A DNA stretch of 64,000 nt from a virus. The notes under the pieces were generated by a model. It was given only the letters and a program-made list of their open reading frames with translations. It was not told the origin of the DNA and did no database searches. The stretch spans positions 11,517 to 75,516 of the IMG/VR virus record IMGVR_UViG_3300036828_000389. One strand, given 5' to 3'. Both the position numbers and the translations under genes were made by a program. Positions 22,814 to 47,738 of this stretch are shown piece by piece (within the stretch, counting starts at the first letter, position 1; each line of letters starts with the position of its first letter).

Positions 22814-23054
22814 TCGTTATCCTTTCGACCTCCCGGTTGACGTACCAGGCTGCCTTTTTGAGATCCTCCACCGGGTCAGTGCCCTTCTTGAGGCCCGCCC
22901 GCCACAGGTATTTGATGGCGTTGCCCACGTTGAAGTTGTACTGCTCAGCGATGACGATGCACTCCACCCCGGAGGGATGGGCGCTGTAGTGATGCGGGTG
23001 GTAAACAGCGTCGAACTCTTCGTCGGTCACTTCGGTGTAGTGAGGGTGATTCAC
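22791..23054 (-). CDS. DUF3310 / T7 gp1.7-like nucleotide kinase domain protein
   Basis: VYHPHHY..GVECI..FNVGNAIKYLWRAGLK..EDLKKAAWY. Confidence 0.85.
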   Translation of the reverse strand: MNHPHYTEVTDEEFDAVYHPHHYSAHPSGVECIVIAEQYNFNVGNAIKYLWRAGLKKGTDPVEDLKKAAWYVNREVERITNAEQRGT

Positions 23055-23221
23055 TTCTTCACCGGGGGTGGGCCCACCTCTTTGATGGCGGCGATCAGGG
23101 CGTCGATCTCATCCTGGGGCCGGTCGAAGAGCAGCTGGGTGAGACAGCGCCCTCCGTCCACGTCATCACGAATGACCCGTAGTAGCTCCAGCAGAAGTCG
23201 GTGTTCTGAGTCACCAGCCAC
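23051..23221 (-). CDS. 56-aa hypothetical protein (not in ORF track)
   Basis: MAGDSEHRLLLELLRVIRDD...; GTGA overlap with DUF3310 gene. Confidence 0.55.
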   Translation of the reverse strand: MAGDSEHRLLLELLRVIRDDVDGGRCLTQLLFDRPQDEIDALIAAIKEVGPPPVKK

Positions 23222-23360
23222 GCTGACTCCGTAGCTCTTCGGTGTCCTGCTCAGTTTGTGGCACTAGTCGGCGTACCGTCGACACGTCCTCCCGCTCGAT
23301 CACCACCAGGATCGGTCCCTGGCAGTGCGGGCAGTTGATCTCCACCTCGCTCTTGTTCAT
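23211..23360 (-). CDS. 49-aa Zn-ribbon mini-protein (not in ORF track)
   Basis: MNKSEVEINCPHCQGPILVV...; SD GAGGAG, ATGA overlap. Confidence 0.55.
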   Translation of the reverse strand: MNKSEVEINCPHCQGPILVVIEREDVSTVRRLVPQTEQDTEELRSQRGW

Positions 23361-23923
23361 GGCGCTCCTCGATCTGCTCGCGCCCAGCCCGGGTTCTTGG
23401 CATCGGTCCGCCGGGTGAGTTCGCGGCTCACCACGGACGCGTCCCGCTCAGCTGACTCGTAGAGCATCTGCTTGAGCTTCCTCCTGGCGTAGATGATCTT
23501 GGCTGAGTCCCGGGCCCGCTGGATCTCGGGGTCGGACTCCATCTGGGCCCGCACCCAGGTGACAGCTTCAGTGACCCGGTCCGGCTTGTTGGCTGCCATG
23601 TACAGCCCTTCCAGGCGACGGACCTCAGCTTCGGCGTAGCGCTCGGACACGTCCTCCCCGGCGAACTGGGCCTGGAAGAAGTCGGTCCAGCGTGTCAGCT
23701 GCACGAAGAGGTTCATCAGCTGCTTGTCGGTCAGGTCATCGATGTCCTGGGGCAGCGGAGGCAGACCGAACTCTGGCGAGGAAATCGGCTCGACCTGTAG
23801 CTCTTCGTAGGCCCGATCCCAGAGTTTCCCCCGTAGATCGCTCAGATGTTCTTGCAGGGTTCTAGGACGCTGAAGTCGATGGCCTTCGGAGGATTCTCCG
23901 CTGCGGCTGGGGGCTTTCTTCAT
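23357..23923 (-). CDS. Helical protein, possible UvsY-like recombination mediator
   Basis: Coiled-coil character; lies in RecA/nuclease cluster; function inferred from context. Confidence 0.55.
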   Translation of the reverse strand: MKKAPSRSGESSEGHRLQRPRTLQEHLSDLRGKLWDRAYEELQVEPISSPEFGLPPLPQDIDDLTDKQLMNLFVQLTRWTDFFQAQFAGEDVSERYAEAEVRRLEGLYMAANKPDRVTEAVTWVRAQMESDPEIQRARDSAKIIYARRKLKQMLYESAERDASVVSRELTRRTDAKNPGWARADRGAP

Positions 23924-24821
23924 ACCGTTGACAGTCTGGGCACCCATCGAAGGGGCATCGGGGGATCTTGCCACCGTCCAGAGCAGAGCAGATGGCACGG
24001 CACTGATCCAGCCGATCTGAGATGCGCTCCTCCTCGTAATGCACGACCATCTCCTTGACCCGCTGGTTCCACTTGCACTCGTACAGGTAGATGAAGGTCT
24101 CCGGCGCTCCCAGGTAGCTGTAGAAGTGCCCCTGGCGGATGTGGGAGGGGAACGGGATGCGGATGGCGCTCCACAGGGCGTCGAGGTCGATGAAGGTGCG
24201 ATCCTTGCCGTTGAGCCGGACCTTGTAGGTGTGTTCCTCCAGCAGCCGGGGGTTCTCAAACCGCAGGGTGTTGATGCCCACGGACTTGATCTCGATACCG
24301 GCCTGGTCCCCGTCGAGCCCGTCGGCGTGCCCGGCCATACGGAGGTGCTGGTTGTAGAGCGGCACCTCGTCAAAGCGAAGGAAGCTGCGGTCAGCCTGGC
24401 ACTCCTCGCACTTCTCCGGTGCGGTACCCATCCAGGCTGAGTGACAGCTGGTGCAATAGAATTGCCCCCTGAGGCGGCCCAGATCCCAGATCCGGCTCTG
24501 CCATTTACGGTGGATCTCCTTGCCCTCATCGAAGATCATCTGCATCTGCCAGTGGGTGATCGGCGCCTCACTGGCGGGGCGGTACCCGGCTAGTTCGTAG
24601 TAGTTAGCTCGCGGGCACCAGTCGTTGTGGGAGACCCGGGAGGGATGCAGTACACCGCTCCTGGGCCCGTCGTCGTAGGACGGCTGCAACAAGAGCCTTT
24701 GAATGTCCCCAAGGAGCCGGGTCTCTTGCTTGGACGTTTCCAGCAACGCCCGCAGGTTGGGATCGATCAGCGGCGGCCTGAGAGATCGCGATGATCTTGC
24801 CGGTGGCGAGGGCATCTTCAC
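23862..24821 (-). CDS. Cas4-like PD-(D/E)xK exonuclease
   Basis: LHPSRV..WCPR, GHADG..IEIKS, QGHFY, C-terminal CPFDGCPDC. Confidence 0.8.
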   Translation of the reverse strand: MKMPSPPARSSRSLRPPLIDPNLRALLETSKQETRLLGDIQRLLLQPSYDDGPRSGVLHPSRVSHNDWCPRANYYELAGYRPASEAPITHWQMQMIFDEGKEIHRKWQSRIWDLGRLRGQFYCTSCHSAWMGTAPEKCEECQADRSFLRFDEVPLYNQHLRMAGHADGLDGDQAGIEIKSVGINTLRFENPRLLEEHTYKVRLNGKDRTFIDLDALWSAIRIPFPSHIRQGHFYSYLGAPETFIYLYECKWNQRVKEMVVHYEEERISDRLDQCRAICSALDGGKIPRCPFDGCPDCQRYEESPQPQRRILRRPSTSAS

Positions 24822-25125
24822 GACGGCGTTGCCGCTTGATCCGGCGTCTTTCTCTTTCGCTTGATCCCCCCCAGACGCCCCACTTCTCGCCGTTGGCGAG
24901 GGCGTACTCTAGGCACTCGGTCAGGACCGGGCACGCTCCGGGGTGGTCCGGGTGGGTTCCCAGGCAGACGGCCTTGGCTTCCTGCACCTGACCGTTGTGC
25001 TGGTGATCGGCGTAGAAGAGGTTCCCCGTGTCGAATGCGTTGACGCCCAAGCACTTTGCCCTGTCGAACCACTCCGGCCGGGCCCGTTCGTGGACCGGCG
25101 GCAGCACCAGATCCACGTCCACCAT
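24604..25125 (-). CDS. whiB: WhiB-family transcription factor
   Basis: WFDRAKCLG..LFY..AKAVC..CPVLTECLEYAL..WGVWGGSSERERR. Confidence 0.9.
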   Translation of the reverse strand: MVDVDLVLPPVHERARPEWFDRAKCLGVNAFDTGNLFYADHQHNGQVQEAKAVCLGTHPDHPGACPVLTECLEYALANGEKWGVWGGSSERERRRIKRQRRREDALATGKIIAISQAAADRSQPAGVAGNVQARDPAPWGHSKALVAAVLRRRAQERCTASLPGLPQRLVPAS

Positions 25126-25426
25126 CAGCCAGTTGGAAGTACTCCCGTTCTGGGAGTACGACAAAGTCTCGGCCTCCCAGCTGAAATCCGAGAACAGGGC
25201 GGCGAGACTCTGCCAGGGCGTGCCGCTCCAGGTCGATGAGGTCGTCAAGTTGGAGCGTAATTGAGCTTCGGTTATCGGTGCGCTTGAACTCGATAAGTTC
25301 AGAATCGGTGCGACCGTCGTTGCGACGGTCCCAACGCGCTCCCGAACGAGGATTACACGCCCCGTCGAACCGCTCCATTCCTTCCCGCTCCTGCTGCCGC
25401 GACAACAGAAGGCGCCGATCCCTCAC
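24818..25426 (-). CDS. Holliday junction resolvase-like PD-(D/E)xK nuclease with long tail
   Basis: SRQQE..NPRSGA..RNDGR..LIEFKRT..SITL motif set. Confidence 0.75.
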   Translation of the reverse strand: MRDRRLLLSRQQEREGMERFDGACNPRSGARWDRRNDGRTDSELIEFKRTDNRSSITLQLDDLIDLERHALAESRRPVLGFQLGGRDFVVLPEREYFQLADGGRGSGAAAGPRTGPAGVVRQGKVLGRQRIRHGEPLLRRSPAQRSGAGSQGRLPGNPPGPPRSVPGPDRVPRVRPRQRREVGRLGGIKRKRKTPDQAATPS

Positions 25427-26523
25427 GCTCGTCGGAGGCGTCGGCCGGAGGCAGGAGGACTGACCTCAGGGCGGCGTCCCTTAGTAACTACGTCCATGAC
25501 AGCATCCTGCAAGGTCTGCCTCAGAGTCAAGTCCCATCTGACCTGCTCTTCCAGGGCCGTCCGGCCATGCCAGGACTCGTCCCCGTGGTAGTAATAGGCG
25601 CCCTTGGTGGTGATCACATCGTAATAGATAGCCAAGTTAAGTATCTCCTTGGCCGGATCATACGAGCCGGGTGAGACACCCACCTCGTTGTGGTCGAAGT
25701 AGAAGTCGAAGGCTGCCACGCGCTCGGGTGGGAACCCCTTGTTCTTCTTGATCAGGCACTTGATGGAGAGCCCGACCTTGCGCTGGTTTCGCTTTTCGCC
25801 CTCTGTGAGCCATTCGTCCCGCTTTAGCTCCACTCGCGTGAAGTACCAGTAGTTCTTGGCCCTCCCACCAGGAGTTACGCGAGGATCGCCCCAGGTCAGG
25901 CCGATCTTCTCCCGCCACTGGTTGACCATGAAGCAAGTCACCGGCCGGTCGGTCTCCACCATGGACCGCTTCATAGCGGTGTACGCCTTGCGGAAGAACT
26001 TGCCCAGGAGCCGCGCTGCCAGACCCACCTGGGTGTCGTCCATGGAGCCCTCCGACTCGCTGACGGGGCTGAGGGCGGGCAGGCTGTCGATCACCAGGGC
26101 GTCGACCGTGCGGCTCTCCAGCACCCGGACGGCGGCGTTGGTGGCCTCCTCCAGGACGTTGGTCTGCATGACCACGATGCGGTCGGTGTCGCAGCCAAGC
26201 TCGCGGGCCCAGCTGGGCACGAAGTCCTCCGCGGCGATCCAGAAGACCGTCCAGTTGGGGTCGGTGGCCTGGTGGGCGGCGATGGTCTTCAGGATGATGG
26301 TGGTCTTCCCGCTGGACTCGTCCCCGTAGATCTCATGCCAGCTGTTCACCGTCCAGCCGCCACCCAGGGCCACGTCGAGGGCCAGGGAGCCGGAGGAGAT
26401 CCTGGGGATCTCGGAGAACCGGATCTGGCTGCCCAGCACCACGGTCTCGGGCCCGTACTCCTTGTTGATCTCGTCTATGACGGCGCCGATCTGGCTCTTG
26501 GGGTCCGCCTTCTTGGTTGGCAT
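25423..26523 (-). CDS. recA: RecA/UvsX-like recombinase
   Basis: ISSGSLALDVALGGG, EIYGDESSGKTT, VIDSL, NQWREKIG..GDPRVTPGGRA. Confidence 0.95.
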   Translation of the reverse strand: MPTKKADPKSQIGAVIDEINKEYGPETVVLGSQIRFSEIPRISSGSLALDVALGGGWTVNSWHEIYGDESSGKTTIILKTIAAHQATDPNWTVFWIAAEDFVPSWARELGCDTDRIVVMQTNVLEEATNAAVRVLESRTVDALVIDSLPALSPVSESEGSMDDTQVGLAARLLGKFFRKAYTAMKRSMVETDRPVTCFMVNQWREKIGLTWGDPRVTPGGRAKNYWYFTRVELKRDEWLTEGEKRNQRKVGLSIKCLIKKNKGFPPERVAAFDFYFDHNEVGVSPGSYDPAKEILNLAIYYDVITTKGAYYYHGDESWHGRTALEEQVRWDLTLRQTLQDAVMDVVTKGRRPEVSPPASGRRLRRA

Positions 26524-27065
26524 CACTCTCCTCGTCGGTCGTGGAAGATGTCGCGCCATGCGCTGATCTCGTTTTCGCCCTCCTCAGGACTCCAGCGCAT
26601 GGCGTCCGGACTATCCAGTTCGGCGGGTGGAGCGTGTACCGGTCTGGCAGGGCCCCATCCGCGCCCCGGGGTCCAGGCCGCGGGGGCACCCTCAGTGACA
26701 CGACGGAGCGCTCGGGCACTGGGGCTTCGGTACTGATCGAACCCTCGTTCGCTGGCCTGCTCGGCTCTGGCTCGATATGTGTTACGGGGAGTTAGCTCAC
26801 CCCGGGCGATGACGCCCATGTTGCCCTCCGCATCTCGCACGGTGGTAAATCGCCGGGACCAGCCCCTCACCCCGGAGTTCATCTGCCGGTTGTGTTCACT
26901 CAGCTGCTGGACCGGAGATCCCGGTGGGATGCGGGTACGGCCCATGCCGACGACATCAGGGGAGTAGTCGTGGCTGTGCCGGAAGGGCCGGGCTAGTTCG
27001 TTCTGAAGCCGCTCCGCGGTCTCTTCCCGGGCGGTACGCGGTCTGCGTCGGGGCTCGTCAGGCAC
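26523..27065 (-). CDS. Arg-rich protein with shared C-terminal tag
   Basis: SD GGAGGAG, GTG 27065; ends DAMRWSPEEGENEISAWRDIFHDRRGE. Confidence 0.7.
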   Translation of the reverse strand: MPDEPRRRPRTAREETAERLQNELARPFRHSHDYSPDVVGMGRTRIPPGSPVQQLSEHNRQMNSGVRGWSRRFTTVRDAEGNMGVIARGELTPRNTYRARAEQASERGFDQYRSPSARALRRVTEGAPAAWTPGRGWGPARPVHAPPAELDSPDAMRWSPEEGENEISAWRDIFHDRRGE

Positions 27066-27390
27066 CTCTCCTCCGATCATGAAAGATGTCGCCCCAGGCA
27101 CCGATCTCATGCTCCCCAGCTGCGGGGCTCCAGGACATGGCATCGCCTGGGTCGGGCTCGGCAGGCAGGTTCCACCGCATGGGATCGCGGCCCGGGTGGC
27201 CGTGAGCGGTCTCCATGTAGGTGTCCATGCCCAGCCGGTCACTGGCTACATACTCGGGATCGTGTTGCAGGTCGTGGATCATCTCGGCGTAGCCCCGGGA
27301 GACACGGAAGGCGGGGTTGGTCGAGCGGGGCGGCTTGTACCCGTGCATCTCACCCAGATGCGCCAGCAGATCCTTCTTGTTCCTAGCCAC
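27058..27390 (-). CDS. His-rich protein with shared C-terminal tag
   Basis: Ends DAMSWSPAAGEHEIGAWGDIFHDRRRGA. Confidence 0.7.
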   Translation of the reverse strand: MARNKKDLLAHLGEMHGYKPPRSTNPAFRVSRGYAEMIHDLQHDPEYVASDRLGMDTYMETAHGHPGRDPMRWNLPAEPDPGDAMSWSPAAGEHEIGAWGDIFHDRRRGA

Positions 27391-27393
27391 GGT

Positions 27394-27636
27394 TCATTTC
27401 TTCTTGGCGGGCTTGCTCACCTGGATGCTGGGGTACTTCTTCGACACCCTGGACCGGACAGAGGACTTCTCAGCTGAGGTGCCGTGCTGGCTCACCCGGG
27501 AGAGGGCGTTGGCGGCCCGCTTCTTGGTGTCGATGGGGTAGTTGCCGGGCTCCCCCTTCTCCTTGCCCTTGGCCTTGGACGGGACGCCGAAGTCGCTCTT
27601 GGGCAGGCTCTCACGCTTCGCCTTGCTGATCGCCAC
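27394..27636 (-). CDS. DUF6582-like small basic protein
   Basis: RESLPKSDFGVP..YPIDTKKRAANALSRV.Q.G..EK..V..KYP. Confidence 0.7.
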   Translation of the reverse strand: MAISKAKRESLPKSDFGVPSKAKGKEKGEPGNYPIDTKKRAANALSRVSQHGTSAEKSSVRSRVSKKYPSIQVSKPAKKK

Positions 27637-27770
27637 TACTTCCCCCTGCTGGTCTTCTTGGCTGCCTTCTTCGCCGGGGCCTTCTTGGCCTTGTCGTCCT
27701 TGTCGTCATCCTTTTGGCCGAACGGCTTGGCCTGCTTGCCCCCGAACGGATCCTTCTTCGTGGTTGCCAT
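27636..27770 (-). CDS. 44-aa Lys/Ala-rich histone-H1-like peptide (not in ORF track)
   Basis: MATTKKDPFGGKQAKPFGQKDDDKDDKAKKAPAKKAAKKTSRGK; SD GAGGAA. Confidence 0.7.
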   Translation of the reverse strand: MATTKKDPFGGKQAKPFGQKDDDKDDKAKKAPAKKAAKKTSRGK

Positions 27771-28163
27771 CTATTCCTCTCTTCTGTCGTGAAAGACTGA
27801 CTGCCACTCTCCCATTTCCTTCTCACCGGCCTCAGGGCTCCAGCGAGCCGCATCGCTACCCGACTCCGTCCATCGACGCTGACGGCCGACGGTGGGGTCA
27901 TGTCCGCCCGGGTCGTGCCCCATCAAGTCGGTGTACTCCTGACGGTTGGCCCGGTGCCGCCAGAGCCCGTAGCGGATGGTCTGGCGCCGGATGGCTGGGG
28001 TCCAGGACTCGCCCTGCTTCCCACTAGCCGCTTGGTCGATAGCTCCCTGGATCTTTTCATGGACTTCGGCATCGGGTGTGCCGACGTGGGTGCGCCCCAG
28101 CATGCGGTCGATTGATCTGGTGGGGACCAGGGGGTCCACCTGGGGCTTACGTGGCTTTGCCAC
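27771..28163 (-). CDS. Basic protein with shared C-terminal tag
   Basis: Ends DAARWSPEAGEKEMGEWQSVFHDRREE. Confidence 0.7.
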   Translation of the reverse strand: MAKPRKPQVDPLVPTRSIDRMLGRTHVGTPDAEVHEKIQGAIDQAASGKQGESWTPAIRRQTIRYGLWRHRANRQEYTDLMGHDPGGHDPTVGRQRRWTESGSDAARWSPEAGEKEMGEWQSVFHDRREE

Positions 28164-28356
28164 GCTTGGGCTGGGGTTCGCGCCCGGTCTCCCGGGTCTT
28201 GGCGGCCTTCTTGGCCATTTGGCTACGTCGCTTGGGGCCCTGGGCGGATGCGTTGGAGATGGCGGCAGCCTTGGACTTGGAGTAGCCCTCGTCCTTTAAA
28301 TCCTCGTACAACTTTGGCCGTTTAATGCTGGGCCCAGGATCTTTACCGCCCGGCAT
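28147..28356 (-). CDS. Small basic protein (GPSIK..YEDLKDEGYSKSKAAAISN type)
   Basis: SD AGGAGG; motif resembles small actinobacterial proteins often fused to Rho-N domains. Confidence 0.7.
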   Translation of the reverse strand: MPGGKDPGPSIKRPKLYEDLKDEGYSKSKAAAISNASAQGPKRRSQMAKKAAKTRETGREPQPKRGKAT

Positions 28357-28666
28357 GATTCCTCCTAAGGATGATTCGTCTAGGGGGTGTGGCTTTCCAG
28401 ACCCTTTGGCCCCGACCAGATAGTCCTTGGCGTTTTCGATCCGTTTCGATCACGAAGCCCTTACGAACCAAGGGCCGGAGCCGTGGAGATATCGTCACCT
28501 TGTCCAGGCCAGTTGCTCGGGTGATGTCGTCCAAGATGGCACCCTGCTCGCCGGTCGCTTGCACGACATCGAACACCATGTTCTCCAGGTAAGTGGCGTT
28601 GACTGACTGAGCAGCGTCAACCGCTGTCTCTATATCGCGACGCCGATACGCTCCCGGTTCGCTCAT
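28343..28666 (-). CDS. Winged-helix DNA-binding protein
   Basis: GAILDDITRATGLDKVTISPRLRPLVRKGFV..R..SGR..VW. Confidence 0.75.
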   Translation of the reverse strand: MSEPGAYRRRDIETAVDAAQSVNATYLENMVFDVVQATGEQGAILDDITRATGLDKVTISPRLRPLVRKGFVIETDRKRQGLSGRGQRVWKATPPRRIILRRNHAGR

Positions 28667-29175
28667 CTCACGTTGGCCCAGCTGAAGTCGGTGTTCCCGG
28701 CCAGGCTGGCGTCGACCTCAAAGTGCTGATCGCCCCTGGGATTGTCACTGCGAGCGAACTGGGTGGGCCCGGAGGACTTCATGCCGATGGCGTTGAGCAT
28801 CCGGCCCGACTGCTCAAACAGGTCGCCGTTGTAGCCGCAATCGGTGCAGAGCGGGGCGCACTCGGCGTTGGCCCAGCGTCGACTGAAGTAGTTGCCACCA
28901 CCGCACTCCGGGCAGCGACTGACCTTGCCGATGTTGCCTGGCGCCTTGGCGACGTATCCCTGGGTGTGGACCCGTTGCCAGTTAGCGTCGTCACTGCCCT
29001 CCGGCTGGACGTTACCCACCTCCTGGCGCGGACCAGTCGGAGGGTACGACTCCCGCCAGCGCACGGCTTTGGCAGGATAGGAGCCCGGTACAGGGGCAGC
29101 TGGGGGCGTCGTGACCGGTGCCTCCGGCGCTCCTGTCCGCCCCAGGTGTCGTTGCCACCAACCGTTATCACTCAT
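28663..29175 (-). CDS. Zn-ribbon hypothetical protein
   Basis: CPECGGGNYF...CTDCGY. Confidence 0.7.
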   Translation of the reverse strand: MSDNGWWQRHLGRTGAPEAPVTTPPAAPVPGSYPAKAVRWRESYPPTGPRQEVGNVQPEGSDDANWQRVHTQGYVAKAPGNIGKVSRCPECGGGNYFSRRWANAECAPLCTDCGYNGDLFEQSGRMLNAIGMKSSGPTQFARSDNPRGDQHFEVDASLAGNTDFSWANVR

Positions 29176-29181
29176 AAATCG

Positions 29182-31419
29182 TCACTTACACTCGGCCCAG
29201 TTGTTTCCAACACTGATATTTGCGATCAGAGGTATGTCGAGGACCGGGTGGCCATCCAGCCGGACATCCTCCATAGCCTCACGCACCAAGGGTAAAGCCT
29301 GGTCGACCACGTCTTCGGCACACTCGATGACGAACTCATCGTGGATCTGGAGAACCAGGTGGGCGTCGAGCCCGGCCAGGGCCCGGTGTACCTGGACAAG
29401 TCCGATCTTGGCTATGTCCGCGGCCGTGCCCTGGATGGGGTGATTGACGGCCTGGCGCTCGCTGTAGAACTTGAGTCCGTTATCGGAGGAGTTGATCTCT
29501 GGCAGCCGCCGTTTGCGGCCATATAAGGTCTCGACGTAGCCATTCGACCGGCAGAACCGCTTGACCGAATAGCCCCAGCGCTTGACCCCTGGGTAGGCCC
29601 GGTGCCAGGCTTCCCAGACGGCTTCAGCCTCTCGCTCAGAGATGCCGGACATCTCCATGACCCGGCCGGGGCCGCCCTCAAAGGCGAAGTTGAAGTTGCT
29701 GTTCTTGGCGATGGCCCGCTGCTCGCCGGAGACCTGGGTCTCGGGGATCCCCCAGATCAGAGCGGCGGTCTGGAGGTGCAAGTCCAGGTCATGGGTGTAG
29801 GCGTAGAGCAGGCGCGGGTCTCGGGTCTGGTAGGCCAGGATCCGTAGCTCGATCTGGGAGTAGTCGGCCACGATCAGCCTCTTGCCCGGTGGGGCCACGA
29901 ACAGCTGGCGGATCATGGTGGCCTCAAAGCTCTCCTTGTGGCGCGCCGGGATGTTCTGGAGGTTCGGACCGCTACAGCTGAGCCGCCCGGTCTTGGCCAC
30001 GGCCTGGTTGAAGCTGGCCCGGATGCGGGCGTCCTCACCGATGTGAGGCATGAACCCGACCACGTAGGTGGACAGCAGCTTGTTCACGTCCTTGTACTCC
30101 AGGAGCCGCCTGGGTTCCTTGTGGCGTCTTGCCAGGCTCTTGAGAGCGGGAGCCGCGGTGGAACGCTGGCCCGTATCAGTCAGGACGGTGCAGCGCAGGG
30201 GAGGGTCCAGTTCGTCATAGAGCCACTTGCCCAGCTGCTGGGTGCTGTTCAGGTTGATCTCATGGCCCACCATGGACCGGATGTCGTCACCGATCTCGGT
30301 CAGCTGGGCCTCCAGCTGGGGTCGCAGGATTCCGAATCCCGTGACATCAACATGGGCTCCCTGCTGACGCATGTCGAGCAGTACCCGGAGTACATCCATC
30401 TCCAGGTCGAAAAGACTGGCCAGCTTCGGCTTCTTCTTCAGGACGCGATGGATTTTCCACCACAGCATCCAGGCCATCTTGGCGTCGGTGATCGAGTACC
30501 TCATGGCCCGCCGCCACTCGACGTTGTACGCCTCCTCACCCAACTTCTCGACGTAGGTGAATCCGATGTAGGTCTGGGCCAGAGCCCCCAACTTGTAGCT
30601 ATCCAGGTTCTCGTTGAGTAGGAACACCATCATCATCACGTCGGCGTAGGGCGGCGGCGGGATTTCGCCGTAATACTTGGCGATGGATAGCAGGTCGAAG
30701 GCCACGTTCTGATTGATCTTGCGCCGGTCGGAGAAGAACAGCGGCTTCAGGGCGGCTAAGACTTCGGTGCGGTCCAGCTGACGGCGTTTGTCGGGATGTC
30801 CCATGGGTATGACGTGCGACACGCCCGGACCCGCGAGGGATAGGCACCAGACTTTGTTGGTCCGGGTGTCCAGGGCCGGTTTATCCTTATCAGCTGCCTT
30901 CCGGCAGAGATCAGAGCAGTAGGCGCGGCGCTTGGAAGGGATGGGTAGGCCACAGGCCAGGCAGGGAGTGGTCCCCTCCCGGTGCCTCGTCAGCACCTTG
31001 CGACCGGATTGCAGCATGCGGACCGGTCGGTCCCCACGGGTCTCGACATCGAAGGCGAACTCCGAAAAAGCCGAGTAGACGCTGACGACTTCTTCTAGCT
31101 CATCCCTGGTGGTGATGGTCTTAACGGGACTGACGTTCTGATCAGTCTGGCGCAGCACCCAGGATTCAAACTGCTCGTAACCGGCGACGTGGCCAGGCGG
31201 CTGAGGGCTGCCCAGCCGCCTCCACGTCTTCTCCACCTTCGTGGAATACTCGATGTCGGCGTCAGTGAATTTGCGGCCGCCATGGGTGCCATCGGTCTTC
31301 TCGGTGCGATGTGCTTCCTCATGGTCAGCGTCGAGGGCGCACAGCCAGGTGCCCCGGTAGTCCCAGCGACCGTCCTTCTCCTTGCGGGGTTCCCTGCGCC
31401 GGGCAGGGCATTTGGCCAC
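29182..31419 (-). CDS. polA: Family A DNA polymerase (3'-5' exo + pol) with Zn-finger insertions
   Basis: FDVET, NQNVAFDL, TGRLSCSGPNLQNIP, ADYSQIELR, QIHDE. Confidence 0.95.
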   Translation of the reverse strand: MAKCPARRREPRKEKDGRWDYRGTWLCALDADHEEAHRTEKTDGTHGGRKFTDADIEYSTKVEKTWRRLGSPQPPGHVAGYEQFESWVLRQTDQNVSPVKTITTRDELEEVVSVYSAFSEFAFDVETRGDRPVRMLQSGRKVLTRHREGTTPCLACGLPIPSKRRAYCSDLCRKAADKDKPALDTRTNKVWCLSLAGPGVSHVIPMGHPDKRRQLDRTEVLAALKPLFFSDRRKINQNVAFDLLSIAKYYGEIPPPPYADVMMMVFLLNENLDSYKLGALAQTYIGFTYVEKLGEEAYNVEWRRAMRYSITDAKMAWMLWWKIHRVLKKKPKLASLFDLEMDVLRVLLDMRQQGAHVDVTGFGILRPQLEAQLTEIGDDIRSMVGHEINLNSTQQLGKWLYDELDPPLRCTVLTDTGQRSTAAPALKSLARRHKEPRRLLEYKDVNKLLSTYVVGFMPHIGEDARIRASFNQAVAKTGRLSCSGPNLQNIPARHKESFEATMIRQLFVAPPGKRLIVADYSQIELRILAYQTRDPRLLYAYTHDLDLHLQTAALIWGIPETQVSGEQRAIAKNSNFNFAFEGGPGRVMEMSGISEREAEAVWEAWHRAYPGVKRWGYSVKRFCRSNGYVETLYGRKRRLPEINSSDNGLKFYSERQAVNHPIQGTAADIAKIGLVQVHRALAGLDAHLVLQIHDEFVIECAEDVVDQALPLVREAMEDVRLDGHPVLDIPLIANISVGNNWAECK

Positions 31420-31426
31420 GGGGCGC

Positions 31427-32167
31427 CTACTGGGTCGACTGGTTGGCTACGTCCTGAAGCTCGGCCCGGGTGGACTTCTCCACCGACTCCTCGTCCCAGC
31501 ACTTCTGTTGCCAGGCCACGATGTCGTCGTCGGTCAGGGGCTCGACCTTCCAGTCCTCCAGCACGTCGCGCCGCTTCACCTGGTGGATCTGGGTGCGCTT
31601 GCTCTTCTTCGGGCCCTTCATGGCGATGGCCCAGTACGTCCCGGCCAGCCCCCTCTCACCAATGTCATCCTCGATGGTCTGGGCGATGGTGATGCCGGTC
31701 TCCAGGGTCTCCAGCAGCGGTGGCTCAGCTGACATATTCATGACGTTGAACCGCACTCGGGCTGAGGGATCCTGCACCTTGCACAGCGGGCAGTCATCCG
31801 GCCGGAGGCAGACGTAGCTCATCTTCACTCCCCGGGCCACCCAGTCGGCCCAGTGCTGAAGGAAGCTGGCGTAGGGGGCATCCTCCAGGAACAAAATTAA
31901 TTGCTCCTGGTCTTGTACCTTGTACATCTTCGTCCATTTACTGGGCGCCGCCGCCTTGGTGCGGTTGTAGCCACCCCAGCCGGTGGCGACGGTACCGACC
32001 TTCAGGTCGTCGTCATCGTCACCAGGACGGGCCGTCGGGTGGGGGTGAGGAGAGCGGAGGGTGGTCGATGGCTCATGCCGTCTGAGAGTCGGCCGGGCCT
32101 CTTCTTCGTATTCTTCGGCTGGCCGGGGCCGCCGTATGAGTCGTCTTCCCGTCTGTTGATCTGGCAC
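31427..32167 (-). CDS. Single-stranded DNA-binding protein (gp32-like, Zn)
   Basis: FLEDAPY..QHW..YVCL..DCPLC; adjacent to polA; acidic C-terminal region. Confidence 0.65.
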   Translation of the reverse strand: MPDQQTGRRLIRRPRPAEEYEEEARPTLRRHEPSTTLRSPHPHPTARPGDDDDDLKVGTVATGWGGYNRTKAAAPSKWTKMYKVQDQEQLILFLEDAPYASFLQHWADWVARGVKMSYVCLRPDDCPLCKVQDPSARVRFNVMNMSAEPPLLETLETGITIAQTIEDDIGERGLAGTYWAIAMKGPKKSKRTQIHQVKRRDVLEDWKVEPLTDDDIVAWQQKCWDEESVEKSTRAELQDVANQSTQ

Positions 32168-32438
32168 GTTGGTCCCTTTGCACGTAGGTAGATAGGTAAT
32201 TGTCAGCAAGATTGGGGTGGATCTCCGACCACCGGGTGGCATTCTCCAGTTCGGCCCGGAGCAGTGTGTCCAGCTGGCGGCTGAGGATCAGCTGCATGTG
32301 GTTCATGGTCGTGTCCAGGTCAGCCGGTCTCTTGTCGAGATCCTCGTCGCTGATCTCGGCGCCCACCTCTACCTGGACGGTCTCGTAGTCGCGGATCCGC
32401 ACCAGGATCCGGAGGTGCTTCTCAAGCTTCATGTCCAT
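32073..32438 (-). CDS. Hypothetical protein
   Basis: SD GGAGG; LVRIRDYETVQVEVGAEI. Confidence 0.6.
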   Translation of the reverse strand: MDMKLEKHLRILVRIRDYETVQVEVGAEISDEDLDKRPADLDTTMNHMQLILSRQLDTLLRAELENATRWSEIHPNLADNYLSTYVQRDQRARSTDGKTTHTAAPASRRIRRRGPADSQTA

Positions 32439-32905
32439 TCCCTCCAGCTGGCGATGACCCGTTCGGTGAATCTGGTGTTGGTCATTAATGGTGGGATCTC
32501 GTCAAGCAGTCCCTCCTCCTCCGCTATTTTCTGCATGCCTTCGATCTGCTTGCGGTTCCACAGCCGCAGTCCGGCGTCGCCGCGGGTTCCAGCCCTGCCC
32601 CTGGTGACGTACCCGGCCTTGGGGATCCAGCCCTTGTCGATCCAGCTGCGGATGGTGACCGACCGCCGTCCCAGAGCCTTGGCCAGGGCGCCGATGTAGA
32701 ACAGTTCCAGGCTCTCACCGGTCGCCGGGTTCGTCCACACCTTCGGGTGGGCGTCCCAACCCTCTTCGGCGCGGATGGCCTTCCTCTCCTGCTTCATGCG
32801 AGCCCGCCGCATGTCGCGGGACTCGCGGCGCCGCTGGGTCGAGTGGGGGTAGAACTCGTCCTCCATGCCCTTGAGGTCTTCAAAGCCTCGCAAGAGGTCG
32901 CTCAC
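32429..32905 (-). CDS. MerR-like HTH DNA-binding protein
   Basis: FYIGALAKALGRRSVTIRSWIDKGWIP..RLWNRKQI. Confidence 0.8.
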   Translation of the reverse strand: MSDLLRGFEDLKGMEDEFYPHSTQRRRESRDMRRARMKQERKAIRAEEGWDAHPKVWTNPATGESLELFYIGALAKALGRRSVTIRSWIDKGWIPKAGYVTRGRAGTRGDAGLRLWNRKQIEGMQKIAEEEGLLDEIPPLMTNTRFTERVIASWREWT

Positions 32906-33369
32906 GACACCGGCTTCCCGTTGTCATCCAGGAGGATGAAGCTGAAGCTGACGGTCTCGGGGAACATCATCTTCAACTCGTCTTCGGTGATGTCGCCGTC
33001 GTAGAACCCGGCAAAGATAGCGTCGGAGTCGGGGACCACGATGGTCTTGGTCATCTTCTCCCACAGCCCCTTCTTCTGGAGGATCTTCTGTATGACCTCC
33101 TCGTTGGCGCTCGGGGTGACGGCCCGCTGGTTCTTCAGCTGGCTGATCTTGCGGTCGCCTACCGGCTCACCCAGGTCGAGGAACAGGGAGCCGGTGGTGG
33201 GATCCTTCTGGCCGAACCGCTGCACCAGTTCCTTGAGCTTGCCCTTACCCTCGTTCAGCTTGGACTGGATGAGGGCGCCCTGACGCTTGACCGCGTACCA
33301 GGCGTCCACCTGGTCGCGGAGTTGCTCCAGGTCGAGGTCATCAGCAGCTGGCCTGCGTAGCGTCGGCAT
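32902..33369 (-). CDS. Hypothetical protein (Gam-like helical?), leaderless
   Basis: TACCCT-7 nt-ATG 33369. Confidence 0.7.
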   Translation of the reverse strand: MPTLRRPAADDLDLEQLRDQVDAWYAVKRQGALIQSKLNEGKGKLKELVQRFGQKDPTTGSLFLDLGEPVGDRKISQLKNQRAVTPSANEEVIQKILQKKGLWEKMTKTIVVPDSDAIFAGFYDGDITEDELKMMFPETVSFSFILLDDNGKPVS

Positions 33370-33399
33370 ACCCACCAGGGTAAGCCGGGGGTGTGACCG

Positions 33400-33789
33400 T
33401 TATGAAGCCGGTGTGCGATCCCGGGGGGGCGGCTTCGGCCGATGGTAGGTGCTGACGCAGTAGACGGGGATACCGGCCCAGCTGGCCTGGTTCAGCCAGT
33501 CCTGGACGTGCCGGTCATGCTCCAGCCGGTCCATGAAGGCGAATACGATATTCGCCCGGGTCCACGACCGTACTTGCCGGCGAGTCAGGTATTTAAAGTG
33601 ATCGACCTCATGCTCCAGGCCGGGCATGGTGCCGTTGTCCAGGATGGTCAGTTCCTCATTCCACTGCCGGGCCCAGGTGTTGAGCGACTCCAGCACCAGG
33701 CGCGGCATGTAGAGGTCGGTGTCGAGCGGTGTGCCCAGGAAGAGATAGCGCGGCCCCTGCGTAGTCACAGATCGGCCAGGGTAGCGCAC
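33400..33789 (-). CDS. SLOG/DUF2493-like protein (degenerate)
   Basis: IVFAFMDRL..DWLNQASWAGIPV C-terminal signature. Confidence 0.5.
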   Translation of the reverse strand: MRYPGRSVTTQGPRYLFLGTPLDTDLYMPRLVLESLNTWARQWNEELTILDNGTMPGLEHEVDHFKYLTRRQVRSWTRANIVFAFMDRLEHDRHVQDWLNQASWAGIPVYCVSTYHRPKPPPRDRTPAS

Positions 33790-33793
33790 GTCA

Positions 33794-33821
33794 AAGAGGC
33801 CCCCCCGAAGGGGAGCCTCTT
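33794..33821 (-). terminator. Hairpin terminator with cUUCGg loop
   Basis: AAGAGGCTCCCC-TTCG-GGGGGGCCTCTT on - strand. Confidence 0.75.
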
Positions 33822-33887
33822 GATTGACCAGCCTGCCTGGGGGTCATCCTCTGCGCCGCGTGGGCCTTCAGGAATCAAGCGCAGGCG

Positions 33888-34709
33888 TCAGCTGACCAAA
33901 GCCAGTTCCAGGGCTTCCAGAGCCTTGGAGACAGCAATCGTGGGGCCCAGAAGCATGTTCCGAATTAGCTCCTTGACGGGCCCGGCGGGCACGCTCTCAA
34001 AGAGCATTTTCAAATGGTACGCACCGTCGGTGGTGCTTTCCAGTGTGGCCTGGTAGGTCTTGATCAGTTTCAACATCCACTGAGTGTCGGACGCATTGGC
34101 CAACTCGTCGGCCTCCCGCTTGCGGTCCTGGGCCGCGGCGTGGGCAGCGTTGGCCACGATGGTCAGATTCTTCTTCCGCTGACCGCGCATGGCGACGCCA
34201 ACCGCATCGATGACCGCACGGTCGACGTAATCCGACTGGTTCCTCCACATGCGCCGGGCCGCGATCAGCTGCTTGGCATTGAGGTTTGACTGGGCGAACG
34301 GATCAGCGTCCTCCTCGCCCAGCAGGATCCTCAGAGCCTGCTTGACGTTGTAGTGATCACGCTGGGGGTCGCTGGCGTACAACGCCCTCCTGTGTTCCTC
34401 CCAGGACTTATCCGGCACCACCAGGTCGGGGGTGAAGTGCCAACCTACGATCCACCACTCCTTCATCCGGTTGATGGATATCTCCCGGCCCAAAGCGGCC
34501 TGATCTACGGCCAGCTGCTGGAGCCGGGTGCGCTGCTCGGTCTTGGCCGCCCGGCTGGTGTCCAGGGGCGTGCAGGGGTGCATCAAGGGAACCAGGGCGT
34601 GGTGGCCCAGGCTCCAGGTGGCGCCGCTATCGGGCGGAAGGCCCGTGGTGCTGAGAACACCACGGGCCCCCACTAGCCCTGGGCGATCCGGAAGATCGCC
34701 GGTACTCAC
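33888..34709 (-). CDS. Hypothetical helical protein
   Basis: 273-aa ORF, GTGA overlap with upstream gene; true start uncertain. Confidence 0.65.
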   Translation of the reverse strand: MSTGDLPDRPGLVGARGVLSTTGLPPDSGATWSLGHHALVPLMHPCTPLDTSRAAKTEQRTRLQQLAVDQAALGREISINRMKEWWIVGWHFTPDLVVPDKSWEEHRRALYASDPQRDHYNVKQALRILLGEEDADPFAQSNLNAKQLIAARRMWRNQSDYVDRAVIDAVGVAMRGQRKKNLTIVANAAHAAAQDRKREADELANASDTQWMLKLIKTYQATLESTTDGAYHLKMLFESVPAGPVKELIRNMLLGPTIAVSKALEALELALVS

Positions 34710-35578
34710 CCGTTCAGCTTGCCCTTCGGAGCCTTCTCCAGTTCACCGGATGACCAGCTGGCGGGAGTCAAGCTGAGCCCGGCCTGCTGATAGACCGGCG
34801 CCAGAACCCCACTCACCTGGGTGGTGGTTGCCTGCAACAGGCCGATGAACATGGCCTGGTCCGCAGGATCAGGGAAGGTGCCCAGGTCCGCCGTGATCTG
34901 CTTGGCGAATCTGAGCAGGCTGCCCACGGCGCGCTGGGCCGCCGGATTGGAAACGTAGCTGAGCGCCCGTTCCGGCACGTTGGTGGCAAACCGGACCTGG
35001 ACTTTCATCGAGGTCTTGGTGCCATCGGGGTTCACCACGATCCGGGTCAGCGCCCCGGTCACGTTCGGCGCCTTGCTCTTCAGGTGCTTCGGTGACTCCA
35101 CCATCACGGTGTGTGCCGGGAGCTTCCCCGACTTGGCCAGGGCGCCCTTGTTGGTCAGGAGGGGCCAGACCAGATCGGTGAGGAAATCCCACTCGACCGG
35201 GAAGTCTGACTTGTCCTCCTCAGACAGTCCCCAGAAGGTGCCGTTGACATCCTCCTGATCGATGCCAAGCTCGGCCACCAGGGGCAGATTGGCATCAGTG
35301 ACCATCCGGGGCAGCACGATCCCGGCAACGTGGTCGAGCATCCGCTCACCGTTGATCATGATGGGCTGGTCCCCGTTGGCGGGGATGTCCAGCAGACCCC
35401 GGCTCTCCAGCACGAACCGCGTCATCTGGGAATCGCGCCAGATGAACCTGGCCGGTGGTGTCGGCAACGGGAATGCCGTGCCCTGGAACTCGGACAGATC
35501 CAGTTCCAGGGGTGGGGGTGGGGCTCCGGGCGTCGCCGCCGGAACCTCCTCCTCCACCGTAGTGGGTGTATCGGTCAT
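34706..35578 (-). CDS. Hypothetical protein
   Basis: SD AAGGAG before ATG 35578 (MTDTPTT). Confidence 0.75.
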   Translation of the reverse strand: MTDTPTTVEEEVPAATPGAPPPPLELDLSEFQGTAFPLPTPPARFIWRDSQMTRFVLESRGLLDIPANGDQPIMINGERMLDHVAGIVLPRMVTDANLPLVAELGIDQEDVNGTFWGLSEEDKSDFPVEWDFLTDLVWPLLTNKGALAKSGKLPAHTVMVESPKHLKSKAPNVTGALTRIVVNPDGTKTSMKVQVRFATNVPERALSYVSNPAAQRAVGSLLRFAKQITADLGTFPDPADQAMFIGLLQATTTQVSGVLAPVYQQAGLSLTPASWSSGELEKAPKGKLNG

Positions 35579-35671
35579 GCTGTTCTTCTCCTTTACCTTG
35601 TCCCCTATGAGCCGTAGCTGGCGGGGTTGTGGTCTGCGTTTGATGACCCAGCCGCAAACTGGGTGACAACA

Positions 35672-35700
35672 CTTATACTCCCATTGTGGGGTGCCGTCAA
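35672..35700 (-). promoter_or_regulatory. Strong SigA-type promoter
   Basis: TTGACG-17 nt-TATAAG. Confidence 0.7.
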
Positions 35701-41371: not shown

Positions 41372-41433
41372 GAGCGCCGCCCTCCTTGATTGTTGACGGT
41401 GTTACGTCCCGGTCCCTGCCGGGAGGTGGTTCG

Positions 41434-41462
41434 GGTGTACTACCGCCAGTCGACCGCGTCAA
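41434..41462 (-). promoter_or_regulatory. Promoter of replication operon
   Basis: TTGACG-17 nt-TACACC on - strand. Confidence 0.5.
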
Positions 41463-41508
41463 GCTGATGCGGGAAGTTGTCGGAGATCCCCAGGTTGTCC
41501 CCAGTCAG

Positions 41509-45060: not shown

Positions 45061-45136
45061 AGCACCCATCGTACCGTAAATGGCTGCTCCATGGGCGGGT
45101 TCGCCCCACCACCCCGTATTTTCTGTCGGAGGCACC

Positions 45137-45352
45137 ATGGCTGACAAGCCGTACATCCAGAACGTGCCGGTCCCGTACATGGACGTGCAGACTCTCTGGA
45201 ACGACCGCCGCGACCCCCACGCCAGTCCCCTGAGCAGTGCGCCGCGGCGGGAGTCGGCGCGCACGGCGCCCGGCAACCTGCACCGCATGGTTGACGAGAT
45301 CTACACGGGCGTCCCTAACCCGGGTGGCAAGCCTGCCGGGAGCGAGAGGTAA
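45137..45352 (+). CDS. Small protein with LWNDRR motif
   Basis: SD GGAGG; TAATG coupling downstream. Confidence 0.65.
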   Translation: MADKPYIQNVPVPYMDVQTLWNDRRDPHASPLSSAPRRESARTAPGNLHRMVDEIYTGVPNPGGKPAGSER

Positions 45353-45549
45353 TGGGGACTGACGCCAACCCCATGGCTGTGTCCCAGCTGCATCGATTCC
45401 GGCCCCGGTACGCAGCCAAGGCCGCCGGTACGCCTCAGCAGCGCTATCAGAACTCGGTTGTCGTCCAGTTCCAGTCGACGGCTAAAAAGCGGCGCCTGCC
45501 GAAGACTCAGCAGCAGCTGGAGCAAGAGCGACGGGCGCAGCGACGCTGA
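45352..45549 (+). CDS. Small basic protein
   Basis: Coupled on both sides. Confidence 0.6.
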   Translation: MGTDANPMAVSQLHRFRPRYAAKAAGTPQQRYQNSVVVQFQSTAKKRRLPKTQQQLEQERRAQRR

Positions 45550-45965
45550 TGGCGGGTGAGAGGTTCTTCGGCCGCGCCGCCCATGACGGCAAGTACATCA
45601 CCGGGGTGGAGCGTCATCCGCCTTCCGATATCGAAGGCACGTCCGGGTCTCGCGGCCCAGCTGAAGTCGCCTTTCACCCTGAGTTCGTCCACCCCAGTGT
45701 CTGGCGCTCCCAGGTCTACTGGGACCGGCGAGAGGAGGGACGGCGCCCGAACCCCACCTGGGTCCGTCCGTTCCAGCAGTCCGAGCATATGCGGGAGTTC
45801 CCCCCGGGATCCGAAGAAACGGGGATGCGAGGTGGGAAGCCGGAGCAGAAGTCGGACATTTTTGAGCCCCTAGCTCACCGCTTCCCGGGAGAAATGAACA
45901 AGCTGTACATGCCCTTCCAGCCTGGTATCGACCCACTGCCACCCAACCCACCCATGTACCAGTAA
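45549..45965 (+). CDS. Hypothetical protein with YWDRREE motif
   Basis: TGATG coupling; abuts portal. Confidence 0.65.
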   Translation: MAGERFFGRAAHDGKYITGVERHPPSDIEGTSGSRGPAEVAFHPEFVHPSVWRSQVYWDRREEGRRPNPTWVRPFQQSEHMREFPPGSEETGMRGGKPEQKSDIFEPLAHRFPGEMNKLYMPFQPGIDPLPPNPPMYQ

Positions 45966-47738
45966 ATGGCCATACAGTTCCAGTCCCCCAGCTATCGGGC
46001 AGCTAGTTCCGACCTCACCATCCAGATCTCTCCCCTGGGTCTGGTGGAGCTTGCCGACGAAGAATTTGAGGTTCACGGTCCCCGGTTGAACCGGTACGCC
46101 ATGAACTGGGCCTTCTACCTGGGATACCACTGGGCCCAGCGACCGGACCTGGGCGAGCCCCAGCTGACCTTTAACTATGTGCGCGCCCTGTCGGACTTCA
46201 CCACCAACTTCGTCTTCGGTAAGGGCATCGGGTTCCGCACTCCGGACGCCACCGGAGCGATAATACCGACGCGGCTCCAACGTATCTGGGAGAAGGACAA
46301 CAGCAAGGACTCCCTCATCTGGGAGGCCGGGTCCATGGGGTCAGTGTCAGGTGACTGCTTTGTCAAGGTGGCTTACGAGGAGCCGTGGGAGGATCCCTCC
46401 GGCATGCCTCACCCCGGACGTGTCCGTATCCTGCCCCTGAATGCTGCGTTCTGTTTCCCTGAGTGGCATCCCCATGACCGCAAGCGGCTGATCCGCTTCA
46501 AGCTGAAGTACCGCTTCTGGGGCACGACCCAGGAGGGAACAAGGCAGGTATTCACCTACACTGAGTTGTTGACCGAGAACTTCATCGAGGAGTACGTCAA
46601 CGACGAGTTGATCGACCAGCGTGAGAACCCGCTGGGGGAGATCCCCGTCGTTCACATCTCCAACCTGCCCATCGCTGGCTCTCCCTGGGGGATGCCCGAC
46701 ATACAGGACATCACAGTCCTCAATCGGGAACTGAATGAGAAGGCCACGGATATCAGCGACATCATCAATTATCATGCTGCGCCGGTCACGGTGATCACGG
46801 GCGCGCGTGCCTCCAACCTGGAGAAGGGCACCCACCAGACCTGGTCGATCCCCAACAAGGAGGCCAAGGTCACCAACCTGCTCTTCGATCCCCAGGGCAT
46901 CGAGATGTCGCTTAAGTTCCTGGAGTTCGTCAAGCAGGCCATGCACGAAATGACCGGGGTTCCTAAAAGTAGTTTAGGCGACGAGCAGCCGATTTCTAAC
47001 ACCAGTGGCGTGGCCCTGGCCATTCAGTACCAGCCGTTGATGAACCGGTTCAAGCTCAAGGCCACCCAGTACGGGGAGGGCTTCGCGGAGGTCAACCGGC
47101 TGGCCCTCAAGACCCTGTTCATGAAGGAGCCCGAGACTCTGGTGTACAACCCAGAGTTTGATCCGCCCCTCCAGGATGACCAGCTGCCGATGTTGGATCC
47201 GATGGATCCGATCACCTACGAGTCGACAGTTCACTTCCAGCCGCCCCTGCCGGTCGACCAGCTGGTGAAGCTGAACGAGCTACAGGTGAAGATGGCCCTG
47301 GGCCTGGAGTCGAAGAAGGGGGCCCTGCGTGAACTGGGCGAGGAGCAGCCGGACGAGAAGCTGAGCGAACTCTTCCACGAACTGATTGATGATGCCGAGC
47401 AGCAAGCTGCTCTGGACTTACTGCGGTCCCAGATCGCTGGCTTCACCGTGATGCAGACCGGCATGGTGCCACCAGAGGGACCACAGCCCATGCCCCCGCC
47501 CCCGGCTAACGGGAACGGGAACGGCAAGTCCAAGAGCGGCGGTAGCTCCGGAGGAGTGAAGTCAGCTGGTGGGCCTAACGTCAACGTGGCCCCCGGATCC
47601 AAGCCGCCCCCTGGTGTCCTGCCTGGTCTCGACCTCACCAGTTCGGCGGATGTCAAGAAGATGTTCGACCGAGTGGTGGCTCTGAGCCACGGCACCGTGT
47701 TGCCACAACGACGTAAACCTGAGGAGGATGAACCTTGA
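45966..47738 (+). CDS. Portal protein (SPP1 gp6-like)
   Basis: FYLGYHW, FNYVRAL, ENPLGEIPVVHISN, NTSGVALAI; position between TerL and MCP. Confidence 0.88.
   Translation: MAIQFQSPSYRAASSDLTIQISPLGLVELADEEFEVHGPRLNRYAMNWAFYLGYHWAQRPDLGEPQLTFNYVRALSDFTTNFVFGKGIGFRTPDATGAIIPTRLQRIWEKDNSKDSLIWEAGSMGSVSGDCFVKVAYEEPWEDPSGMPHPGRVRILPLNAAFCFPEWHPHDRKRLIRFKLKYRFWGTTQEGTRQVFTYTELLTENFIEEYVNDELIDQRENPLGEIPVVHISNLPIAGSPWGMPDIQDITVLNRELNEKATDISDIINYHAAPVTVITGARASNLEKGTHQTWSIPNKEAKVTNLLFDPQGIEMSLKFLEFVKQAMHEMTGVPKSSLGDEQPISNTSGVALAIQYQPLMNRFKLKATQYGEGFAEVNRLALKTLFMKEPETLVYNPEFDPPLQDDQLPMLDPMDPITYESTVHFQPPLPVDQLVKLNELQVKMALGLESKKGALRELGEEQPDEKLSELFHELIDDAEQQAALDLLRSQIAGFTVMQTGMVPPEGPQPMPPPPANGNGNGKSKSGGSSGGVKSAGGPNVNVAPGSKPPPGVLPGLDLTSSADVKKMFDRVVALSHGTVLPQRRKPEEDEP

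Follow-up and report, generated by a model that had tools for sequence, protein, structure and literature searches.

Why do three small proteins, encoded close together in one viral operon and otherwise unrelated, all end in the same peptide? This question is raised by a 64,000-nt stretch of DNA (hereafter the window), corresponding to bases 11517-75516 of IMG/VR virus record IMGVR_UViG_3300036828_000389, a 75.5-kb sequence estimated to be 64% complete. Its major capsid protein shares 68% identity with its counterparts in Streptomyces phages BRock, pSt2308 and GiJojo (genomes of 113-116 kb), which marks the source as an uncultured relative, from soil, of the BRock group. Genes A, B and C, all on the minus strand between PolA and RecA, in the slot between DUF7218 and recA, end in one shared peptide of ~29 residues (hereafter the tail), with the consensus [SG]P-D-A-M-R-W-[STN]-P-x-x-G-E-x-E-[IM]-x-x-W-x-x-[ILVM]-F-[HNR]-D-R-R. 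The initial annotation had described three otherwise unrelated proteins with a common C-terminal tag, and this description held: the open reading frames (ORFs) and their endings were as quoted, while the bodies preceding the tail cannot be aligned with one another and belong to different BLAST classes. A threefold match of this kind is far beyond chance. A six-frame scan of the window and the profile search of the whole 75.5-kb record, a scan which that annotation had proposed, recovered exactly three copies and none further (E 6e-25 to 3e-22). The answer that we favour, with moderate confidence, is that the tail serves as a portable docking peptide on a tether, through which unrelated accessory proteins are recognized by one shared reader.

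Conservation of the tail is a property of the peptide. Codon analysis by the Nei-Gojobori method, covering the 25-codon core of four copies (the three described here and one from a related phage), revealed 15, 18 and 2 invariant columns of 25 at codon positions 1, 2 and 3, respectively. The proportion of synonymous differences (pS) ranged from 0.69 to 1.0 and was saturated in five of the six pairs, against 0.12-0.26 for nonsynonymous differences (pN), and the sole measurable pair demonstrated a synonymous divergence (dS) of 1.89 and a ratio of nonsynonymous to synonymous divergence (dN/dS) of 0.10. No conserved RNA structure was detected, the consensus fold of five tail regions being weak (-5.5 kcal/mol). 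With invariant third positions rare, pS saturated and the RNA fold weak, selection therefore acts on the tail as a peptide, which confirms what the initial annotation had deduced from the synonymous differences. An RNA or DNA element was rejected on the same codon-position pattern and weak consensus fold.

The tail is also tightly joined to the gene that follows it. In each of the five contexts known, its stop codon either overlaps the start that follows or abuts on it, and, as had been noticed from the sequence of this locus, the residues after DRR encode the Shine-Dalgarno (SD) sequence of the next gene as well. Thus, the last codons of gene A (...GGAGAGTGATG) lead into recA, the end of gene B (...GGAGGAGAGGTGCCTGA) spans the GTG start of gene A, SD included, and that of gene C (...GAGAGGAATAGATG) runs into a 44-aa Lys-rich ORF. 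The gene A start and the gene B stop overlap by 8 nt, and the placement of this start at the GTG at 27065 agrees with the 180-aa protein on record (P0014). In copies A and C the DNA similarity extends a few codons beyond the stop (minus strand, 26500-26525 and 27748-27773), into starts that read MPTKKADP in RecA and MATTKKDP in the 44-aa ORF, which suggests that the tail moved together with the gene boundary by recombination.

Profile searches of 5.8 billion clustered proteins, exhaustive against 1.84 billion representatives, recovered the full tail in only ~14 clusters (50% identity), mostly from unnamed run assemblies. Eighteen bearers could be aligned in register, all with the tail at the extreme C-terminus, and after its removal their bodies were distributed among 11 BLAST classes. 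In the 17 non-degenerate tails (P0030 was left out), residues D154, W158, P160, G163, E166, F174, D176, R177 and R178 (numbering of gene A) are invariant, and P153, M156, R157, E164, [MI]167 and W170 nearly so; the net charge of the tail ranges from -1 to -6, and several bearers add 7-8 variable residues after DRRxE. Judged by sequence comparison, the tail is a portable and separate module, since the C-body family includes members with and without it (three and eight, respectively, of the 11 collected, the tail-less relatives being 78-85 aa long), homologues of the gene A body (P0017-19 and P0021) keep body and tail with a linker varying from 0 to ~60 residues, and two bearers, P0028 (48 aa) and P0023 (65 aa), are nearly tail-only. 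One of the tail-less C-body homologues (P0005, from NCBI) originates from a metagenome-assembled genome of 'Candidatus Dormibacteria' and is found on 69 contigs, so that the range of the C-body family is wider than this phage clade.

Neither bodies nor tail led to a known family. No Pfam (E<=0.1) or PHROG (E<=0.01) family was assigned to A, B, C, P0015, P0016, P0020 or P0022, the only row being a weak one of P0022 versus RRM_3 (0.062, below cutoff), and no relatives of the gene B body were found. The tail was not detected in cultured phages: tblastn gave chance matches in Klebsiella phage polymerases (E>=0.3), and no match to the region was obtained by blastn against 50,697 phage records. A search of the ESM Atlas with the tail returned no usable feature match, the structure rows being generic short helices, and scans of IMG/VR and JGI metagenomes, with a strict DNA pattern and guided by the profile, retrieved only genome G001 and contig L013.

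Comparison with relatives placed the tail genes among the accessory ones. Among the 25 IMG/VR loci with RecA at 70-81% identity, a full tail occurs within 4 kb of recA in only one (G001, 93.6 kb), G002 (117.5 kb) and G003 (114.5 kb), two relatives with essentially complete genomes, contain no full tail anywhere, and the bodies of A, B and C are absent from five relatives, two of them complete genomes; the slot is therefore variable and its genes accessory. In all three phages with a known context, the gene directly before recA ends in the tail, with a different body each time: the window has the A-type, G001 the P0013-type and L013 a fragment of the C-type. In most relatives recA is directly preceded by a Lys-rich gene of 41-46 aa, a homologue of the 44-aa ORF of the window (L014-L038). 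This Lys-rich family is conserved across the clade (MATKKEPFGGKQAKPFGKKG...KKAPAKKTAAKKK) and ends in a PAKK-type stretch reminiscent of a histone-like DNA-binding tail.

AlphaFold2 models of A and C, built with family alignments, predicted the same order of body, linker and helix. The gene A model has strands at residues 52-93 (predicted local distance difference test, pLDDT, ~70-77), a linker at 99-152 below 50 and a helix at 160-179, with pLDDT ~80 over residues 161-170. In the gene C model, a helical body (10-81, pLDDT 83-92) is followed by a linker (88-108, below 50) and a helix (110-129). In both models the tail is predicted to be unpacked from its own body, and on a helical wheel the conserved positions span more than half of the circumference, which suggests that the modelled helix would be buried in a groove of a partner rather than lying on a surface. 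The gene C model had no PDB fold match at E<=0.001, and its BFVD match was one uncharacterised phage protein only; the gene A model gave Z<=3.7 against 48,161 chains, a weak test at a mean pLDDT of 58. A membrane-targeting helix and an arginine-rich RNA-binding motif were both rejected on two grounds, the acidic net charge of the tail and the end of the window copies immediately behind DRR.

The C-terminal half of the tail also recurs alone, as a shorter core motif ΦFHDRRxEG[RK]R(xxP), whose EGRR..P extension is present in several full tails. It was found in other small proteins of every examined clade genome, at C-terminal, N-terminal or internal sites. The window accounts for five matches and G001 for six, with three more in G002 and two in G003; a loose pattern, Φ-aromatic-x-DRR, has five six-frame matches in the window, all in coding frames. 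At least one such protein lies in the interval between terminase and portal of each examined genome, and at least two in all but G000 if an ORF with the looser LWNDRR is counted. In the window, the core-motif stretch of a 138-aa protein from this interval reads ...VYWDRREEGRRPNP; in G002, a 53-aa protein ends with ...LRPDLFHDRREEGRRDRPN; in G001, two proteins start with ...DLFHDRRGEGKRTAP and ...GLFHDRREEGRRTAP; and in G003, one carries ...HHDRRVEGRRNTP. Another bearer, a small Zn-ribbon protein (C-x2-C ... C-x-C) that ends with ...LRPDLFHDRREE(A) in G001, G002 and L028, has no homologue in the window and no relative in cultured phages.

According to the docking reading, the tail would comprise three parts, first a flexible linker, then SPDAMRW-S/T-P as a short segment and last a single acidic amphipathic helix (GExE[IM]xxWxxΦF[HN]DRR), and one common reader protein would hold the otherwise unrelated small accessory proteins of the clade through it. 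We infer that the tail binds a partner and that all bearers share this partner, because the peptide is selected, modular, always C-terminal, predicted to form a helix at the end of a disordered tether and built around a clade-wide core, with bodies swapped behind it and some proteins nearly reduced to it. Occurring at varied sites in every clade genome, the core motif behaves as a short linear motif read by a conserved hub. Circumstantial candidates for the reader are a component of head assembly or packaging (portal, procapsid interior or terminase) and the recombination/replication machinery (RecA); a host hub is possible as well. Several points weigh against the docking reading: the tail region of gene C was modelled at low confidence (pLDDT ~50); the SD of the next gene imposes a further constraint on the two or three terminal residues, so that some of the conservation there is not purely peptide-driven; and the full tail is present in only two long genomes. 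With so few long carriers, both incomplete, co-occurrence is uninformative and cannot name the reader: G000 and G001, compared with the tail-less G002 and G003, have in common a PAPS-reductase-like gene and a few small ORFs.

The initial annotation had regarded the tag as a portable sorting signal or docking motif. A portable module on 11 body classes, with a body-linker-helix anatomy, agrees with this. The capsid-loading or ejection role suggested alongside, taken here as a capsid-loading or portal/terminase-docking address tag that would serve co-injection or packaging coupling and be a special case of docking, is doubtful. The core motif occurs in two to four small, disordered, fast-evolving proteins between terminase and portal of the window and G001-G003, proteins of 53-96 aa that end or start with ...LFHDRRxEG[RK]R... 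being among its bearers; no proteins of the clade are better conserved than portal, capsid protein and terminase (82-88% identity), as expected of a common reader; and the large terminase of the cultured BRock (gp156, L040 8528-10102) ends with ...NPFYDRRR, resembling the core motif. The T-even internal proteins follow the same pattern, diverse accessory bodies with only the conserved tag in common (PMC3012670). However, the three tail genes are in the replication/recombination operon, tightly coupled to recA and downstream of polA, rather than in the head module; neither a prohead protease nor a cleavage site was found, and no protease gene was recognised between portal and capsid protein; scaffold and capsid proteins of the phage lack the motif; and the terminases of the uncultured clade end otherwise, in TPW[SA] and then an Arg-rich stretch. 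A shade more doubtful is the fully specified version, in which tail and core (ΦFHDRRxEGRR) would be a cargo address label read by a conserved head-assembly component (portal or procapsid interior), interchangeable accessory proteins being loaded for co-injection by a C-terminal, uncleaved actinophage counterpart of the capsid-targeting sequence (CTS) of T4; the cargo would possibly be host-takeover or anti-defence factors from the variable early slot. Docking of accessory proteins onto the phage RecA filament or the replisome/polymerase appears improbable. It would account for the tail at the end of the gene immediately upstream of recA in all three phages with a known context, for its acidic character with aromatic residues and for a module that also encodes PolA, DnaB, primase and helicases, but most relatives with RecA 70-81% identical lack any tail gene, genes B and C lie apart from recA, head-module proteins carry the core motif as well, and the adjacency may only reflect a gene-insertion hot spot. 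Co-folding of RecA (81 sequences) with gene A residues 138-180 (18 rows) scored 0.00 and, run without controls, speaks neither for nor against binding.

The remaining alternatives are less probable again. In lambda CII, a C-terminal tag marks the protein for proteolysis, and a portable C-terminal degron, allowing timed proteolysis of early accessory proteins by a host protease, would be expected at an extreme C-terminus, exposed on a disordered linker, transferable and attached to accessory early genes. We nevertheless consider a degron distinctly unlikely, given that 18 of ~27 positions are conserved, far above known degron needs, that the core motif is also N-terminal or internal in head-module proteins and that the tail resembles neither ssrA-like nor other known tags. 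A cis-acting nascent peptide, pausing termination in the ribosome tunnel and tuning the coupling to the next gene, would explain why the tail is always at the 3' end, has about the length of the exit tunnel, tolerates any body, conserves Trp, Pro and Arg and adjoins the next start in 5/5 contexts. There is very little chance that it applies, as no RNA structure was found that a paused ribosome could open, several bearers continue for 7-8 variable residues beyond DRRxE, the core motif occurs near the N-termini of other proteins, and tight coupling is general in this operon with or without a tail. A functionless relic of recent DNA duplication, one of the outcomes by which the initial annotation had said it would be refuted (dN/dS near 1), could leave DNA similarity running past the stop as in copies A and C; it is excluded for practical purposes, because five of six pairs show saturation at synonymous sites with the amino acids preserved, the measurable dN/dS is as low as 0.10, and the tail is conserved in at least 14 clusters at 50% identity.

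As a kind of device, a portable terminal address or docking peptide is known, although the motif and two-part build described here are undescribed in the libraries searched. In T4, the CTS is removed by the prohead protease. The T4 internal proteins are a diverse, fast-evolving and defence-related set whose sole common part is this short conserved sequence, portable to foreign proteins (PMC3012670). The tail is likewise a short conserved peptide and the only part common to diverse accessory proteins, but the CTS is N-terminal and the tail C-terminal (18/18 bearers), ~27 aa long, acidic, encoded in a replication operon and without sequence similarity to it. The C-terminal tails of T7 gp2.5 and gp4 and the C-terminal tip of single-stranded DNA-binding protein (SSB) are acidic, aromatic-containing, flexibly tethered and dock onto a partner. 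The present tail resembles them in being C-terminal, acidic, aromatic and tethered and in its replication-module location; however, they are short and end in an aromatic residue, whereas here a longer helix is followed by a chain end of DRR plus 1 to 10 residues, and one tail is found on many clients instead of a single hub tail for many partners. Sliding-clamp motifs (QL[SD]LF, PIP box) are another case of unrelated clients sharing one short terminal motif and one hub, and the [DS][ILVM]F segment of the tail is similar to ...[SD]LF. The positions ending at F174 are instead W, [QRE], variable, [ILMV] and F, lacking both a conserved Gln and a hydrophobic residue at position 2, and the invariant flanks of the tail (W...., HDRR) are foreign to clamp motifs.

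Encapsulin cargo peptides and the C-terminal helices of scaffold and HK97 protease are tethered, transferable and bind the inside of an HK97-fold shell, the consensus of the encapsulin cargo-loading peptide being Gly/Ser/Leu-rich. The tail too is C-terminal, tethered and transferable, but DAMRWSP..GE.E..W..FHDRR lacks the Gly/Ser/Leu-rich consensus. A local likeness also exists to the LGFP repeat (PF08310), with WSPxxGExEI in the tail against YWSPxTGAxEI in the repeat, and the tail profile matches actinobacterial LGFP proteins (P0024, P0026, P0027; IYWSPATGAHEIHGSI..W) at E 8e-6 to 7e-5, by summing 3-4 repeats. Only 17-19 residues per repeat are involved, however, whereas the tail is single-copy, predicted to be helical and carried by cytoplasmic early proteins, and no LGFP match was obtained for the bearers in Pfam at E<=0.1; the resemblance is probably only local. 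Finally, ribosome arrest peptides of the SecM, TnaC and MifM type call for peptide-level conservation of the last ~20-25 residues and for a following gene whose ribosome-binding site is governed by the pause. Here the end of the tail is conserved as a peptide and tightly coupled to the next gene, and no conserved RNA structure was found.

Terminal peptides shared by unrelated phage proteins point to hubs that organise infection, through replisome docking, cargo loading or timed turnover, and the tail, being long, strongly conserved and clearly modular, is a well-defined example. Its reader, if found, would reveal a common pathway for unannotated proteins in the widespread BRock-related soil actinophages and could make the tail a transferable tag for recruiting or packaging proteins.

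The window has a G+C content of 62.6%, and the same stretch is present in two soil metagenome DNA runs, with no RNA run among the holders listed. The replication/recombination module occupies the minus strand from ~40868 down to ~21785, and the head module (large terminase, portal, scaffold-like protein and major capsid protein) starts on the plus strand at 41552. A sliding-clamp gene was not found in the window; a hidden clamp or SSB, sought among the proteins at 31427-35713 by Pfam, PHROGs and PDB sequence searches, gave no match, and a promoter/terminator scan of 23000-42000 yielded no informative site. Coordinates are collected in Table 1.

Table 1. Tail-bearing genes, their neighbours and core-motif proteins (window coordinates unless a contig is named).
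Feature	Position	Strand	Remarks
Gene A, 180 aa (P0014)	26523..27065	minus	beta-rich body, ~55-residue disordered linker, tail
Tail copy A, 29 aa (SPDAMRWSP...FHDRRGE)	26526..26612	minus	gene A stop and recA ATG overlap by 1 nt
Gene B, 110 aa (P0012)	27058..27390	minus	body and tail; body absent from five related genomes
Tail copy B (DPGDAMSWSP...FHDRRRGA)	27061..27153	minus	final codons hold SD and GTG start of gene A
Gene C, 130 aa	27771..28163	minus	helical body of wider 78-85-aa family, linker, tail
Tail copy C (GSDAARWSP...FHDRREE)	27774..27860	minus	gene C stop abuts ATG of 44-aa ORF
RecA/UvsX-like recombinase, 366 aa	25423..26523	minus	from ATG overlapping gene A stop; Pfam RecA 8.6e-51, phrog_97
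44-aa Lys-rich ORF	27636..27770	minus	downstream of gene C
80-aa ORF (phrog_16160)	27394..27636	minus	between 44-aa ORF and gene B
170-aa Zn-ribbon protein, winged-helix protein, DUF7218 protein		minus	replication module, listed between PolA and tail genes
PolA	29182..31419	minus	
DnaC-like loader, DnaB helicase, primase, SNF2-type helicase		minus	replication module, listed before PolA
WhiB-like genes (two)	24604-25248; 40488-40868	minus	replication module
319-aa ORF	23862..24821	minus	no family match; listed after WhiB-like gene
Small ORF between terminase and portal	45080..45352	plus	looser motif TLWNDRRDPH; conserved in G001-G003
138-aa disordered protein	45549..45965	plus	directly upstream of portal; internal core motif VWRSQVYWDRREEGRRPNP, from ~45714
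Portal	45966..47738	plus	
Zn-ribbon short-motif protein	L039 1354-1557 (G002); L004 4935-5252 (G001); L028 167-343		

The WhiB-like protein at 24604-25248, encoded directly downstream of recA, is 214 aa long, including an extended N-terminus. Behind the head genes, a 1595-aa protein (50919-55706, plus strand) that is strongly divergent between relatives and matches only phrog_14065 (function unknown) may be a tape-measure or another large virion protein. A 3'-phosphoadenosine 5'-phosphosulfate (PAPS) reductase-like protein (426-1376, plus strand; PF01507, 3e-16) is common to the window and G001 and absent from the complete G002 and G003. A von Willebrand factor A-domain protein (Pfam VWA, 5.5e-7), preceded by a 329-aa protein without a family (3574-4563 and 4594-5277, both plus strand), forms with it a pair common to the window and G003; G002 has the 329-aa protein only.

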